Shown: one piece after another, positions 26,316-58,254 of the stretch | Numbering within the stretch: position 1 is the first letter of the stretch | Layout: each line of letters begins with the position of its first letter | IMG/VR virus record: IMGVR_UViG_3300044816_000098 | Location: 1-64,000 of that record | Reading direction: 5' to 3' (one strand) | Source of the DNA: a virus | DNA length: 64,000 nucleotides | Program-made: the position numbers and the translations under genes | The notes under the pieces: generated by a model | Databases searched by the model: none | What the model was told of the DNA's origin: nothing | The model's input: only the letters and a program-made list of their open reading frames with translations

Positions 26316-28826
26316 ATGCAGACGCTGACTGGGCTGTTCAGGGAAGACGGGTACCCGAACCTTGACGCGGTGTTCCGCGAGGGGGTCGAGCGTCGTCGGA
26401 AGCGGCACGGCGTCTGTCACGGCACCGGGTGCACCTTCTGGGCCGGTCACCCCGGGCTCTGCGGTTCGGCCCCCACAGGCCCTGTAGAGGGCGCTGACTC
26501 GGGCGGCGGAGACGACGGAGGGGGCATGTCGTCCACGGCTGCCAGGAAGCCGTACACCGAGGACGTCAGCGATGACGGTCCGGTAACCCTGCACTACCAC
26601 CGCCGGGTAGACGCTCCGGCCCCGAACATGGGCAGTCGGTTCGGCCAGGACATCGAACCCAACGGTCAGTACTTCTCGCAGGGCAAGCTGGGCGGAGACC
26701 ACCTCGATAACCCGATCTTCGAGCATGGCCAGAAGAGCTTCCAGCGCCCCTTGAGGATCCACCTGGACGACTGGAAGTCGCAGCTCTCCCAGCGGTACCA
26801 GGGACAGACCGGCAAGGGACTGTCGCAGGCGATCCGCAACGACGGCTACGACGCGATCCTGACCCATGACGAGTACGGCCCCTCGGAGAGCGTCGATCTG
26901 TCGAACTTCCGGCCGAAGAAGGCCGCTGAAGAGCACATCGGCGAGGACAAGTACGAGAAGGAGCCGGACGACTTCCATGACCAGCTCTGGGACCGGTGGC
27001 ACCCCAAGCTCCAGCCTACGGTCCACCGGCACCTGGCCCTGGACCTCCCCAAGGGTCACCCGGCGCATGACACCAAGCTGCCGATGGCCGACCGGGCGCA
27101 CGCCGTGCTGGAGGCCGCCACCTCGGGGGACGGGTACCGGCCGGGCAAGATGGGCGTCAACTGGACCGACGACCCGACGTACGACCACTTGTCCTCGGGC
27201 AACGGTCGGGTCTCCCCAGGACAGACCCGGGTGACCATCCACGCCCAGACTCCGCCCCGCCATCACATCGAGGACGACGACTACACCCTTGAGCAGCGCG
27301 GCGTGCGGGACTGGGACACGGACCCCGAGCGGGAGGTCCCGCTCAAGCGCAACGCGCCCATGAACGTCACCGGGGTGAGCTGGCACTCGGGGGACGGACC
27401 TCAGCGTCACACCTTCGAGCAGCCCATCAGCAAGAAGGCCCAGTACGAGCAGGAGCACTCGTGGCTCCCCACCGGTCGGTACTGGGGACCGAACTCCGGT
27501 CACAACGACCAGCGCCTCTTCGAGGGGGAGCATCTGCGGCCGGAGATCCGGAAGGACATCCTCAAGCGGGTGGGGGACTTCTTCGATGGTCACGGCTACA
27601 AGAACTGGCCGCACTGGACCAAGGTGTATTTCGCCGGGTCGGAGGCTGCTCAGTGGGAGCCGTTCAACGGGGACTTCGACATCCTCATTGGAATCAACTG
27701 GCCCCATTTCCGCAAGGACAACAGGGGTTACGCGAAGAAGAACGACCTTCAGGTCACCACGGAGATGACTGACGGATTGTGGAAGTCCACCAATGTGGAC
27801 GACTACTACTTCACGCTGGACAGCGGCAAGAAGGTCGGTCCATTCGACCGTACGTTCTTCGTCAACCCCATCGCCTGGGATATCTCAAAGCTGCATCCCT
27901 ACGCGGCATATGACGTCTCAGAGGATGAATGGGCCGTTTCTCCCCTAAAGGTCCCCAAGGACTGGAGCGCCGAGAAACTGCCCGAGGGATATTGGGTCTA
28001 CGCTGAGTCGCTCGTCGCCACCATCAAGGCCATCGGCACCCTTCCGGCGGAAGAGCGCCACCGTATGGCCCGCAACCTCTGGGAGGAGCTGCATACCCAC
28101 CGCAGCGACGCCTTCGCAGATGGCGGGCATGGTCTGTTCGACTTGTCCAACGTGGTGGAGAAGTACCTGGATCAGCACCCTGATAAGCCGTGGGACCAGC
28201 TCCGCGACTGGAAGAACACCTCTCCTGTCGGGCCGGAGCCGTGGGTTCCCACGACGGCCGCACGGAGGCAGACCTTGACTACGATCTTCCAGGAAGCAGC
28301 AGTACGCACCGAGGTACGCGACCCCGGCTCCGCCACCGGCGCGGACTACGAGGGCATCATGATCGCCCTGGTCCCGCCGAAGAAGGTCTGCAAGGACCTG
28401 GCCCTGGACGGCGGTGAGCCGGTCGAGTCCATGCACGTGACTCTCGCTTACCTCGGCTCCAGGGGAGAGCACAGCAAGAACCACATCAAGGCCCTGCCCA
28501 ACCTGGTGAAGTCCTGGGCCAGCACGCGGACTCCGTTGACCGCGACCGTGGGTGGGGTGGGCACGTTCGTGAACCCCACCCAGCACGTCCTGTGGGCTGC
28601 GGTGGACATCCCCGACGGCACCACGTTCCGGGACGACCTCGTGAGGTACCTGGAGGGACACGGGTACGAGATCCGCAACGACCACGGGTGGACCCCTCAC
28701 GTCACCCTCCAGTACAGCAAGAGCCGGATCCGGTTCCTGCCCAAGGTGGATCCGATGGAATGGCCGGTCAGCGAGGTGTGGGTGTGCATCGGCAAGCACT
28801 GGGCGTCCTTCCCCCTGGGTGGATGA
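26316..28826 (+). CDS. polyvalent protein: two ADP-ribosyltransferase-like domains, a nucleotidyltransferase and a 2H phosphoesterase
   Basis: GYDAIL...E.V; VHR...GVNWT...EREV; FAGS...DFDIL; two HxT motifs (MHVTL, PHVTL). Confidence 0.7.
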   Translation: MQTLTGLFREDGYPNLDAVFREGVERRRKRHGVCHGTGCTFWAGHPGLCGSAPTGPVEGADSGGGDDGGGMSSTAARKPYTEDVSDDGPVTLHYHRRVDAPAPNMGSRFGQDIEPNGQYFSQGKLGGDHLDNPIFEHGQKSFQRPLRIHLDDWKSQLSQRYQGQTGKGLSQAIRNDGYDAILTHDEYGPSESVDLSNFRPKKAAEEHIGEDKYEKEPDDFHDQLWDRWHPKLQPTVHRHLALDLPKGHPAHDTKLPMADRAHAVLEAATSGDGYRPGKMGVNWTDDPTYDHLSSGNGRVSPGQTRVTIHAQTPPRHHIEDDDYTLEQRGVRDWDTDPEREVPLKRNAPMNVTGVSWHSGDGPQRHTFEQPISKKAQYEQEHSWLPTGRYWGPNSGHNDQRLFEGEHLRPEIRKDILKRVGDFFDGHGYKNWPHWTKVYFAGSEAAQWEPFNGDFDILIGINWPHFRKDNRGYAKKNDLQVTTEMTDGLWKSTNVDDYYFTLDSGKKVGPFDRTFFVNPIAWDISKLHPYAAYDVSEDEWAVSPLKVPKDWSAEKLPEGYWVYAESLVATIKAIGTLPAEERHRMARNLWEELHTHRSDAFADGGHGLFDLSNVVEKYLDQHPDKPWDQLRDWKNTSPVGPEPWVPTTAARRQTLTTIFQEAAVRTEVRDPGSATGADYEGIMIALVPPKKVCKDLALDGGEPVESMHVTLAYLGSRGEHSKNHIKALPNLVKSWASTRTPLTATVGGVGTFVNPTQHVLWAAVDIPDGTTFRDDLVRYLEGHGYEIRNDHGWTPHVTLQYSKSRIRFLPKVDPMEWPVSEVWVCIGKHWASFPLGG

Positions 28827-28905
28827 TCGAGGGGGTTGACTCCTGCAATCCTTGGTAGTAGCGTTCTCTTTGCCAGAGAGAAACTGACTCCCCGGGAGAA
28901 CCCAC

Positions 28906-30015
28906 ATGACGCAGCTTCACGAAGAGATCCGCATCGCCGTAGAGGTCGCCAAGGCAGCAGGCTGGCCAGTGGCCTTCCGCAGCGGCAAGGTCGTCATCAC
29001 GGCGCCCAACGGGATGAACCTCACCGTCGGCACCCGACCGAACGAGGAGACCGTCAAGGACTGGCGGTCGGTCTGCCGCAAGTACAACCTCCTTGGTGAG
29101 GGTCCGGCCCGTACGCCGGAGCAGCAGGAAGAGGCCCGGGTGGCGGCGGCGAACGGAACTCCCCTCTCCCCGGAGGCGAAGGCCGAGTCGGCAGCGAAGG
29201 CCGAGAAGAAGGCTCAGGCCGCCGAAGCACAACGCAAGGCGGACGCGGTGGTTGCGGAAGCGGCCAAGCTGCCGACCCCTCCGGCCTCTCCCTCGGCTCC
29301 GTCTTCACCGGTGAAGCCGGTCAACGTCCCGGTCGTCGCCGTGACCAAGGTGACCCCGGACACCATCGCGAAGAAGGCCGCTGCCAAGAAGACGGCTGCC
29401 GCCCCGGTTCGGGACGCCAACGGCTACCCGCCCTTCACGCCGGACATGCTCACCTCGAAGACCTACGCCCAGTTCAAGCTGGCTGACGGCCGGTACTTCT
29501 GCCCCAACTGCTGGGGCCACGGGGAGAAGCTGTCCTTCAAAGCGCCCCAGGGTGTCGCGAGCCACCGTGGCTTCAAGCACGGCGTCTTCAGCCCGGACGC
29601 CGCGAGCGGTGAAGGGGCCCTGCCGGAGTCGCTCCTGACGGCGCTGGAACTCCTCAAGCTGGAGATGGTCGAGCACCTGGCCAGCACGGTGGACGAGGAG
29701 CTGATCAAGGAGCAGCAGGAGAAGATCGAGGGCCTAGGCGTCCTGATCGAGCGTCAGCGGACTCTGCTCAAGGAGCGCGGCGAGGAGATCACGAAGCTCG
29801 GCTCCGAGATCGAGAAGCTCAAGCTGACCGCCGAACAGCGTGGGGTTCTGCTGGACGGGGAGAAGGCCCGCTTCGACCGCGAGGCGAAGCAGATCATGGA
29901 CAAGGTCGCCACCGACCTCGGACAGTTCCGTACCTGGATCAACGAGCTGGCCCCGGTGCGTGCTGTCGGCAAGATCAACGACACCCTGGACAAGTACCTC
30001 GGCGACGAGAGCTAG
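28906..30015 (+). CDS. hypothetical protein: HicA-like N-terminus, Ala/Lys/Pro linker, C2H2-type Zn finger, coiled coil
   Basis: GWPV...VITAPNG; YFCPNC...SHRGFKH; heptad C-terminus. Confidence 0.65.
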   Translation: MTQLHEEIRIAVEVAKAAGWPVAFRSGKVVITAPNGMNLTVGTRPNEETVKDWRSVCRKYNLLGEGPARTPEQQEEARVAAANGTPLSPEAKAESAAKAEKKAQAAEAQRKADAVVAEAAKLPTPPASPSAPSSPVKPVNVPVVAVTKVTPDTIAKKAAAKKTAAAPVRDANGYPPFTPDMLTSKTYAQFKLADGRYFCPNCWGHGEKLSFKAPQGVASHRGFKHGVFSPDAASGEGALPESLLTALELLKLEMVEHLASTVDEELIKEQQEKIEGLGVLIERQRTLLKERGEEITKLGSEIEKLKLTAEQRGVLLDGEKARFDREAKQIMDKVATDLGQFRTWINELAPVRAVGKINDTLDKYLGDES

Positions 30016-56263: not shown

Positions 56264-56848
56264 ATGGGTAATCAGCTCAAGGTCCAGCTCACCCTCACCG
56301 GCACCGCACCGATCCTCATGCACAACGCGCGGCTGGCGGACCCGCTGGACAGCTACACCAAAATGCTCAAGGTGGTGTCATCCAAGCGGACCAAGACCGA
56401 CGACGACCACGAGGAGATGGCCCGCGTCGAGTTCCTTGGGGGCCTGTACTGCGACGACGTCATGGGTCCGTACATCCCGGGCGTCAACCTCCACCAGTGC
56501 CTGATCGAGGGAGCCAAGCTCACCCGGCGCGGTCGGCACGTGGAGCGCGGCGTGGTGGTCATGGAGGAACAGCTCCTCCTCGCATACAGCGGCCCCCGCA
56601 CGCCGGACGAGCTGTACGCGGACAAAAACTTCCGCTCGCGGCTCTCGGTGGGTGTCACCACCTCCCGCGTCATGCGGACCCGCCCGAAGTTCTCCTCGTG
56701 GGCCCTGGAGGCCAACCTCGTCGTGGACACCGGGCAGCTCGACCTCAACGACATCAACGAGATCAGCGAGACGGCCGGGATGATGATCGGCCTGGGCGAC
56801 TACCGCCCGCGCTACGGCCGGTTCGATGTCGTGGTGACGGAACTCTGA
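56264..56848 (+). CDS. stand-alone RAMP/Cas7-like RNA-binding protein (candidate Vipr-like effector)
   Basis: N-terminal strand LTLTGTAPILMHN, PYIPG..L, RTRPKF..W, C-terminal Gly-rich loop IGLGDYRPRYGRF; own promoter; array begins right after the stop codon. Confidence 0.75.
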   Translation: MGNQLKVQLTLTGTAPILMHNARLADPLDSYTKMLKVVSSKRTKTDDDHEEMARVEFLGGLYCDDVMGPYIPGVNLHQCLIEGAKLTRRGRHVERGVVVMEEQLLLAYSGPRTPDELYADKNFRSRLSVGVTTSRVMRTRPKFSSWALEANLVVDTGQLDLNDINEISETAGMMIGLGDYRPRYGRFDVVVTEL

Positions 56849-57279
56849 CGTTCAGGGCAAGGCATGGCAAGGCTCGGTAGAGCTGGGCCAGGCTGGTCAA
56901 GGCAGGGTTCCCCATCAGGGCTTCACGGCGCTAGTGGGGGCGTTCAAGGCGGGGCGTGGCAAGGCACGGTACGGCACGGCGGGGCAAGGCAGGGTTCCCC
57001 TTCAGGATTTAAAAGTCCTGGAGGGGGCGCTCTGGGCGAGGCTTGACGGGGCTGGGTATGGCCAGGTCTGGCGGGGAAAGGCAAGGCAGGGTTCCCCTCC
57101 TCAGGATCACACCTGAGGAGGGGGCTTTGAGGCGGGGCATGGGCAGGACCAGGCGGGGCGCGGTGTGGCCGTGTAGGGCACGGCGTGGCAGGGTTCTTCT
57201 CCCTCTGGGTCAGACCAGGGGAGAGGGCAATCAAGGCGCGGCACGGCGCGGTTAGGCAAGGCAAGGCATGGCAGGGATC
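56849..57279 (+). ncRNA. array 1: five (GGY-NN)n units, the first four closed by hairpins (candidate guide RNAs)
   Basis: 5-nt periodicity with variable NN, conserved end GGCAG-GGTTC, then GC hairpin and CGTTCA-like linker. Confidence 0.8.
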
Positions 57280-57302: not shown

Positions 57303-57881
57303 ATGAAGAAGTTCGAGGCCGAGGACCAACAGCCTCGGTGGGCACGGGTCTACAACGGCATCCGCGCCCTGAAGACCGGTGAGGCGGCCACCTATCACCA
57401 GCTCAGCGAGTGGGCAGGGGTGGATGTCACCGGGACCAACAGGGCCTGCGTCTACGAGGCGATCCGGTTCTTGCAGCGCAAGGACCACCGGACGCTCGCC
57501 TGTATCCCCACGGTGGGCTACATGGTGGTTCCGGCCAGTGCTCACGAGGATCTCGCCAAGAAGCACAACAAGAAGGCGGGTCGTCAGCTCCGCGAGGCCA
57601 TCGGCAAGGTCCAGTCGGCTGACCGGAACTACCTGACCCCGGCCGAGGCCCGGCGGATGGATTCCATGGAGGTGGACCTCTCCCGGCAGAGGCACATGAT
57701 CATCGGCCTGAGTCGGCGACTCGACAGGACCGAGACCGCCATCAAGGAGGCCCGCCAGCGCGACCGCGAGGCCAAGGGCACCATCGCTCAGCTCTCCGAG
57801 GAGAAGGACGCTCTGGCCACCGAGGTGCGCGAGCGCCTGGCGCGCCTGGAGCAGGTCCTCCTGGACCGCACGGCGGCCTGA
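57303..57881 (+). CDS. winged-HTH-like plus coiled-coil protein embedded between the arrays
   Basis: GACTCACAGGAGG RBS; ATYHQLSEWAGVD...IPTVGYMVV; heptad C-terminus. Confidence 0.7.
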   Translation: MKKFEAEDQQPRWARVYNGIRALKTGEAATYHQLSEWAGVDVTGTNRACVYEAIRFLQRKDHRTLACIPTVGYMVVPASAHEDLAKKHNKKAGRQLREAIGKVQSADRNYLTPAEARRMDSMEVDLSRQRHMIIGLSRRLDRTETAIKEARQRDREAKGTIAQLSEEKDALATEVRERLARLEQVLLDRTAA

Positions 57882-57896
57882 TCCCCAGACTTCTTG

Positions 57897-58136
57897 GGCA
57901 CGGCTCGGCTCGGTAGGGCCAGGCGTGGCACGGCAAGGCGCGGCAGGGTTCCCGCCCTGGGGATCACACCTCAGGGCGGGGCGTTCCGTGGCAAGGCAAC
58001 GCAAGGCGGGCCGGGGCGCGGTGGGGCAAGGTACGGCTTGGCATGGCGAGGTTCCCCACCAGCACTTCACGGTGCTGGTGGGGGCGTTCAGGGTTAGGCA
58101 GGGCTGGGCTGGACAAGGTAAGGCAGGACATGGGAG
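57897..58136 (+). ncRNA. array 2: three (GGY-NN)n units
   Basis: Same unit grammar as array 1. Confidence 0.8.
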
Positions 58137-58173
58137 GAGACCCCGCAGGTCAGATGACTTGCGGGGTCTCTTC
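58137..58173 (+). terminator. hairpin closing the RAMP/array transcription unit
   Basis: GAGACCCCGCAGGTC...GACTTGCGGGGTCTC TTC, immediately before promoter 58185. Confidence 0.65.
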
Positions 58174-58254
58174 ATGCAGCGGGGTTGTACTCCTGCAATC
58201 CTTGTAGTAGCTTTCTCTTATCACCATGAACCACTGACTCCCCTGGAGGGTCAT

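Follow-up and report, generated by a model that had tools for sequence, protein, structure and literature searches.

U7, the seventh of eight guide-RNA units in a locus of a 154-kb actinobacterial myovirus, is almost certainly a VIPR guide gene, and its target is probably a ParA-type Walker A box, although with less certainty that this box belongs to a rival mobile element. The VIPR mechanism has already been published, and what is new here is the predicted parA target class, with a candidate target that is credible but unproven. The window that we analysed comprises the first 64 kb of IMG/VR record IMGVR_UViG_3300044816_000098 (154,156 bp, 65% GC), which has direct terminal repeats and an estimated completeness of 100%. 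The terminase and DnaE of this phage show only 31–34% identity to proteins of cluster C mycobacteriophages and Gordonia phages.

VIPR, first described in 2026, is a CRISPR-like gene silencer that phages carry (bioRxiv 10.64898/2026.04.26.720920, 10.64898/2026.04.26.720927 and 10.64898/2026.10.15.759431). It consists of a minimal RAMP protein (Vipr), an accessory gene (vap) and vrRNAs, which are made up of 9–16 YNNGG repeats and a structured 3′ tail; the NN dinucleotides pair with the target with exactly one target base skipped, the skipped bases are mostly codon wobble positions, and either strand is targeted, with no PAM and with transcriptional repression as the outcome (10.64898/2026.04.26.720920).

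Four lines of evidence identify the present locus (Table 1) as a VIPR system: the homology of its Vipr protein, the fold of that protein, the co-occurrence of protein and arrays, and covariation in the RNA tails. The Vipr protein matches phrog_4652 (E = 1.8e-57) and, over residues 7–191, shares 35% identity (E = 1.2e-36) with a phiSUSP1 protein (28495–29052) that is itself flanked by NNGGT arrays. An AF2 model built on a 9-sequence alignment (pLDDT 89.9, pTM 0.84) found Csm3/Cas7 subunits of type III and type VII systems as its top PDB matches (E ~1e-5, probability 1.0), and the modelled fold is Csm3/Cas7-like. A Vipr homologue is encoded in 17 of 24 IMG/VR loci that were picked by array pattern alone; in three actinophages, Gordonia phages Trine and MakoManhole and Mycobacterium phage LittleE, the homologue likewise has such arrays at its flanks. 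The small ORF between the arrays matches phrog_5926 weakly (4.5e-5) and has no Pfam match, but a homologue adjoins vipr in one IMG/VR locus (L008; 31% identity, 1.3e-20), and a gene that resembles it, judged by eye, lies behind the arrays of Trine. The locus thus combines a RAMP Vipr homologue, vrRNAs of GGY/NN repeats and a structured 3′ tail, which is a hairpin here and a pseudoknot in the published form. Readings of the repeats as a binding site for a TRAP-like ring protein, as a centromere or as a G-quadruplex array were set aside in favour of the published VIPR systems.

Table 1 Features of the VIPR locus, by position in the 64-kb window
Feature	Positions	Strand	Description
vipr	56264–56848	+	194-aa minimal RAMP (Cas7/Csm3-like) protein
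vrRNA units U1–U5	56854–57272	+	8–12 NNGGY pentamers apiece; tail of U1–U4 is AGGGTTC plus hairpin
vap-like accessory gene	57303–57881	+	192 aa; between the arrays, co-oriented
vrRNA unit U6	57895–57987	+	11 NN, then hairpin tail
U7 guide region	57988–58052	+	13 pentamers; ParA deviant Walker A decode
U7 3′ tail	58053–58089	+	~14 bp hairpin led by TCCCC, then GCGTTC
vrRNA unit U8	58090–58175	+	7–10 pentamers, GC-rich hairpin end, short T-rich stretch

Pentamer parsing resolved eight guide-RNA units, all on the + strand between 56854 and 58124 and with 7–13 pentamers apiece, in which a near-constant GG(C/T) accompanies a free dinucleotide NN; across the eight units, diverse NNs stand beside a conserved GGY. 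Some of the units have fewer than nine pentamers or carry degenerate triplets, and the latter occur in most units of the locus (U1, U3, U4 and U8, besides U7). U5 continues into the ribosome-binding site of the vap-like ORF, and the end of U8, read by eye, is likely to be the terminator of the locus. In the tails of U1–U4, U6 and U7, the AGGGTTC lead-in is followed by a hairpin of ~12–14 bp. Alignment of these six tails gave a consensus hairpin of 16 pairs, 8 of which show compensatory changes; the best-paired hairpin of the six is that of U7, and the whole U7 unit has a z-score of −2.85. Guides of either array cluster (see below) had no self-target within the 154-kb genome, the window had no Rfam match at the gathering threshold, and megablast of the locus against phages returned no match.

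Outside the window, a second cluster of four vrRNA units lies at 151054–151384 on the − strand, ~93 kb from the first, with tails that appear identical or similar to the U1 and U2 tails, and a possible solo unit of 12 pentamers lies at 111500–111559, also on the − strand. The phage would therefore carry 12–13 guides in two or three places, with a single vipr gene.

Related arrays in other phages differ in how they end or are punctuated. The NNGGC arrays that adjoin the vipr homologue in Trine (L025, 3140–3368), MakoManhole (L026, 2919–3100) and LittleE (L027, 2169–2400 and 3645–3950) end in a tRNA-like minihelix, which is neither a hairpin nor a pseudoknot. In this minihelix an acceptor-like stem is joined by a T-arm whose loop reads GGTTCGA, and one example is labelled 'tRNA-???' by ARAGORN; the shape suggests that the arrays may be processed by tRNA-maturation enzymes. 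The word tRNA is absent from the main text of the first VIPR preprint (10.64898/2026.04.26.720920). The annotated CDS start of Trine gene 40 (L025, 3097–3900) falls inside the vrRNA arrays, and an alternative start at ~3395, after a GAGAGGA ribosome-binding site, would give a protein that resembles the vap-like ORF; the deposited start is probably wrong. A GTCGCG motif lies between short pentamer runs in one IMG/VR locus (L004, 2159–3700) and GGCAGGC junctions occur in the arrays of three others (L011, L016 and L021), punctuation that may reflect the staggered or other array architectures to which the VIPR preprint refers.

Reading from position 57990, U7 consists of GGC-AA GGC-AA CGC-AA GGC-GG GCC-GG GGC-GC GGT-GG GGC-AA GGT-AC GGC-TT GGC-AT GGC-GA GGT-TC. 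The initial annotation had seen a ParA-type Walker A motif in the dinucleotides of this unit, and we recovered exactly the same core string from that position, with one flanking NN on each side: (GT) AA AA AA GG GG GC GG AA AC TT AT (GA), in which the YNNGG register adds GT (57988–57989) at the 5′ side and GA (58048–58049) at the 3′ side of the core. Taken as NNx codons, the string spells (V)-N/K-N/K-K-G-G-A-G-K-T-F/L-I/M-(D/E). This fits only the ParA/MinD signature with an extra lysine, K-G-G-x-x-G-K-[ST]; the classical GxxxxGK[ST] is not matched. Of the 13 constant triplets, two (CGC at 58000 and GCC at 58010) are degenerate, and the last NN, GA, may belong to the tail, because it stands at the site of the conserved AG of the other units. 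The decode depends on a gap of one base that falls on the codon wobble position, as the initial annotation had supposed, and both the gap and the wobble alignment are experimentally established for VIPR systems (10.64898/2026.04.26.720920, 10.64898/2026.10.15.759431). As noted initially, no parA was seen in the window, and the whole phage is without an AAA_31-type ParA. In another unit, U2 (56946–56995), the NN string AA GG GT AA AC AC AC resembles the common ParA sequence K-G-G-V-G-K-T-T-T minus two glycine codons; it does not fit a contiguous one-base-skip reading and is possibly a coincidence.

Natural matches to U7 lie nearly all in frame in ParA-type genes and exceed control patterns. The exact 11-NN pattern had no match in 2.9 million viral contigs, nor in 185,579 species represented by one genome each. 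Within the viral contigs, the 5′ 9-NN seed of U7 had 26 matches, 21 of which read NNKGGAGKT in frame in ParA-like proteins, whereas shuffling the order of these nine NNs gave 5 matches in one control and 9 in another, and the 9-NN seeds of U6 and U3 gave none. The 3′ 9-NN seed of U7 was likewise without a match in viral contigs; in the species genomes it had 45, of which ~38 read KGGAGKT[FL]I in MinD/ParA/CobQ-type proteins. Mismatch-tolerant searches covered samples totalling ~1,100 Actinomycetota genomes, the remainder of the work being exact-seed scans. The U7 pattern outnumbered its reversed control by 10 to 3 in the phylum sample (401 genomes, ≤3 mismatches), by 8 to 1 in the order-level sample (301 genomes, ≤3 mismatches) and by 13 to 0 in the genus-level sample (401 genomes, ≤2 mismatches); the genomes in the last two samples are of Streptomyces size (~5–13 Mb). 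Matched genes scored Pfam AAA_31/CbiA. Natural parA matches thus rise above both the shuffled and the reversed controls, at the one-base gap that has been published.

No target in an actinobacterial phage, plasmid or genome reached 24 of 26 bases in the exact-seed scans and the ~1,100 sampled genomes, in which the best matches were 21–22 of 26. The ParA genes of Streptomyces phage Gilgamesh and of a Kitasatospora plasmid, tried as U7 targets, matched at only 17 of 26 bases and were rejected. For the NNKGGAGKT ParA family of IMG/VR, no close relative was found in cultured phages. We also looked for convergence of guides on shared targets: besides U7, no guide rose above background on the provirus, the marine contigs or the parA loci of 5–13-Mb genomes that are described below, and none of the other guides yielded a target in these searches.

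Three sets of matches deserve separate treatment. The first is an actinobacterial provirus (G001; 127 kb, 69% GC), in which U7 matches 21 of 26 bases in a parA gene (Pfam AAA_31, 1.7e-27) whose nearest plasmid relatives are actinobacterial ParAs; an exact-protein look-up found no protein identical to this ParA. The match is an outlier only at a skip of one base, with 21 of 26 bases versus 15–16 at skips of 0, 2 and 3. The three tail-proximal NNs mismatch, both in this provirus and in the phage ParA family. Published cryo-EM work resolved structures of the filament and the gapped R-loop, with assembly intermediates from the tail end in the 3′-to-5′ direction, and suggested that target engagement starts at the tail end (10.64898/2026.04.26.720927).

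The second set came from a 10-NN scan of metagenomes, which returned 49 loci; 43 of these match all 11 core NNs (24 of 26 bases with the flanks), in frame, in an AAA_31/CbiA gene. Exact 11-NN matches were limited to marine contigs of 49% GC that encode a ubiquitin hydrolase with UBA domains (UCH/UBA), cyclophilin and Fcf1. These eukaryotic genes indicate that the contigs are of eukaryotic origin and hence irrelevant as a target of U7. The matched gene encodes a 435-aa ParA/CbiA-like protein (…CFANNKGGAGKTFMAYQLACEAA…) that is near-identical across many samples (L106–L154; for example, L153, 4512–5819). It is probably a nuclear gene of a picoeukaryote, and its exact match to the U7 core is a coincidence.

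The third set is a single actinobacterial parA-like family (…VIVANQKGGVGKTFISSG…), to which all order- and genus-level matches with two mismatches belong. Its members agree with U7 at 20 of 22 core bases and at 21–22 of 26 bases overall. The two mismatches are identical in all 17 copies (a Q instead of N/K and a V instead of A), so that this family is probably not the exact target. Over ten core codons, positions 1 and 2 are invariant among the 17 copies and position 3 takes 1–4 different bases. The family occurs in ~3% of the sampled genomes, one of which has two copies, and its local GC content is 59–69%. One 407-aa copy, with a ~140-aa N-terminal extension, sits on a 54-kb contig, where its neighbours encode a DnaB-type helicase, a Mu-type transposase and a protein with sigma-70 region 4. 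The sporadic spread, the GC content and the helicase and transposase neighbours give this family the look of a mobile one. The family (L156, L184–L190 and L194–L203), which is N-terminally extended by ~140 aa, is sometimes found only tens of kilobases from where a very large contig ends, and it may mark a plasmid or a mobile element of terminal regions.

We weighed three other explanations for the U7 string. It could be a real vrRNA whose resemblance to a Walker A box arises from common dinucleotides, its true target being unrelated or unsampled. The initial annotation had left room for chance on the grounds that AA and GG are frequent, and its premise holds: AA is the commonest NN in the units of this phage and GG is frequent too. 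The motif was moreover spotted post hoc among eight units and two strands, the scans yielded no exact target in a plausible host, and, given a database of huge size, any Walker-A-like string can find a match, as the exact one in a marine eukaryote makes plain. The conclusion nevertheless fared badly in shuffling. We defined the deviant Walker A at the NN level as AA GG GG nn GG AA followed by AC, TC or AG. This pattern appeared in 2.05e-4 of 200,000 shuffles of the phage's own NN pool (12 units, both strands), and permuting U7 alone, with its own GG-rich NNs, still gave only 3.9e-4. Across 119 arrays (1,739 NN) drawn from the present genome, the 24 IMG/VR loci, three actinophages and SUSP1, it was present in one, U7, against a pool-shuffle expectation of <0.001. 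Allowing for ~100 motifs that a reader might recognise leaves chance at only a few percent. The match also extends past the core, with N-N upstream and F/L-I/M downstream, both of which are found in natural ParA/MinD proteins. It is very unlikely that the Walker A reading of U7 arose by chance, and we accordingly give little credence to this explanation as a whole. About equally improbable is that U7 is a decayed guide or a decoy, with two degenerate GGY triplets, an atypical last NN and a functional target that is gone. CGC and GCC do replace GGY at two positions of U7, perturbation of GGY abolished silencing (10.64898/2026.04.26.720920), and no exact target was found in our scans; but degenerate triplets are a feature of most units in the locus, the U7 tail hairpin is the best paired, and a clean, protein-like reading of 11 codons is not expected of a decayed guide.

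Somewhat less improbable, although still unlikely, is that U7 serves host takeover and is aimed at a ParA/MinD-type gene belonging to the host, such as a chromosomal or telomere-proximal one, rather than at a rival mobile element. This would agree with the finding of the best actinobacterial matches in ~3% of 5–13-Mb genomes, two of them near the start or end of very large contigs. The same parA-like family, however, is sporadic and mobile in appearance, as described above, and by our own reckoning the usual chromosomal ParA (NQKGGVGKTT) would be off at 5 of 22 core bases. The natural VIPR targets that have been published are satellites, prophages and other VIPR loci (10.64898/2026.04.26.720920). 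The initial annotation had placed the target in the parA of a competing element. The ParA part of that proposal is supported by the decode and by in-frame parA matches in excess of controls, whereas the element itself was not pinned down, as no host-plausible target matched at 24 or more of 26 bases. Because the scans gave no exact host-plausible target, we infer, rather than observe, that U7 in reality acts on the parA-family gene of some competing replicon, whose partition functions would be silenced by the binding.

The preferred reading, a ParA-type Walker A box as the target of U7, can be cast in terms of the published mechanism. Vipr protomers would polymerise along the U7 transcript, one per pentamer, each burying GGY and leaving NN exposed; the NNs of the filament would pair with double-stranded DNA, with every third target base skipped, and a gapped R-loop would form and block transcription. 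The 11–13 NNs of U7 would specify codon positions 1 and 2 of (V)-N-N-K-G-G-A-G-K-T-F/L-I/M. This motif is the deviant Walker A box, which genes for short ParA proteins carry close to their 5′ end. The target would most likely be a parA-family gene on an extrachromosomal replicon or a prophage that resides in the host, and binding of U7 would silence this gene together with everything downstream. With the skipped bases on wobble positions, the target could escape only through changes to invariant ATP-binding residues. A more ambitious proposal, which we regard as possible but doubtful, is that U7 is a broad-spectrum guide acting at the level of the motif, with which the phage silences partition operons throughout an entire class of plasmids or plasmid-prophages resident in its host. 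A single hard-wired vrRNA would then read codon positions 1 and 2 of the invariant Walker A box, which is promoter-proximal in parA, and the plasmids or plasmid-prophages would be destabilised or disarmed during infection, in a form of RNA-guided anti-partition warfare. The one-base skip, the filament mechanism and the logic of wobble escape are taken from the preprints; the U7 string, its membership in VIPR, the non-random ParA-type decode and the in-frame parA enrichment over controls come from the present analysis.

The closest described relatives are the type II VIPR systems of Escherichia phage SUSP1 and a Pseudomonas fulva prophage (10.64898/2026.04.26.720920). Common to these and the present locus are a lone Vipr RAMP protein, a small adjacent gene (here a putative accessory gene), carriage by a phage, and several vrRNAs with 8–13 GGY-NN pentamers and a structured 3′ cap. 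By contrast, the present locus resides in a 154-kb actinobacterial myovirus of 65% GC and is known from sequence alone; its constant triplet is mostly GGC rather than GGT, its tail is a simple hairpin of ~12–14 bp with an AGGGTTC lead-in rather than a pseudoknot, and a second four-unit cluster lies ~93 kb away. In SUSP1, vrRNA4 sits on the active-site codons of a satellite recombinase, from which escape needs an amino-acid change (10.64898/2026.10.15.759431). The predicted U7 footprint is similarly wobble-aligned on the codons of an essential motif, but the satellite recombinase has experimental support as a target, whereas the ParA deviant Walker A is a predicted target class. More distantly, VIPR resembles the Cas7–crRNA backbones of class 1 CRISPR systems (type I Cascade and type III Csm/Cmr) in its RAMP fold, its helical filament on a guide RNA and its periodically interrupted guide–target pairing. 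The period is 5 nt with 2 pairing in VIPR, compared with 6-nt segments with 5 pairing in class 1 CRISPR, and, unlike the latter, VIPR is without a CRISPR array, adaptation genes or a nuclease; its guides are hard-wired genes.

These data place a VIPR system in a large actinobacterial phage, with a different tail design and at least 12 guides. The match to a marine eukaryote carries a general lesson: a guide to a universal motif can match irrelevant organisms perfectly, so that target calls from large databases need host context. The 17 nearest copies of the box, in which the first two positions of the core codons are kept and the third drifts, illustrate the use of a code that skips the wobble base. 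The words ParA, partition and Walker are absent from the main text of two VIPR preprints (10.64898/2026.04.26.720920, 10.64898/2026.10.15.759431), and within the scope of those main texts this target class has not been reported for VIPR. If the prediction is true, the targets of VIPR would come to include partition ATPase genes of extrachromosomal elements, in addition to satellites, prophage regulators and the active sites of recombinases.
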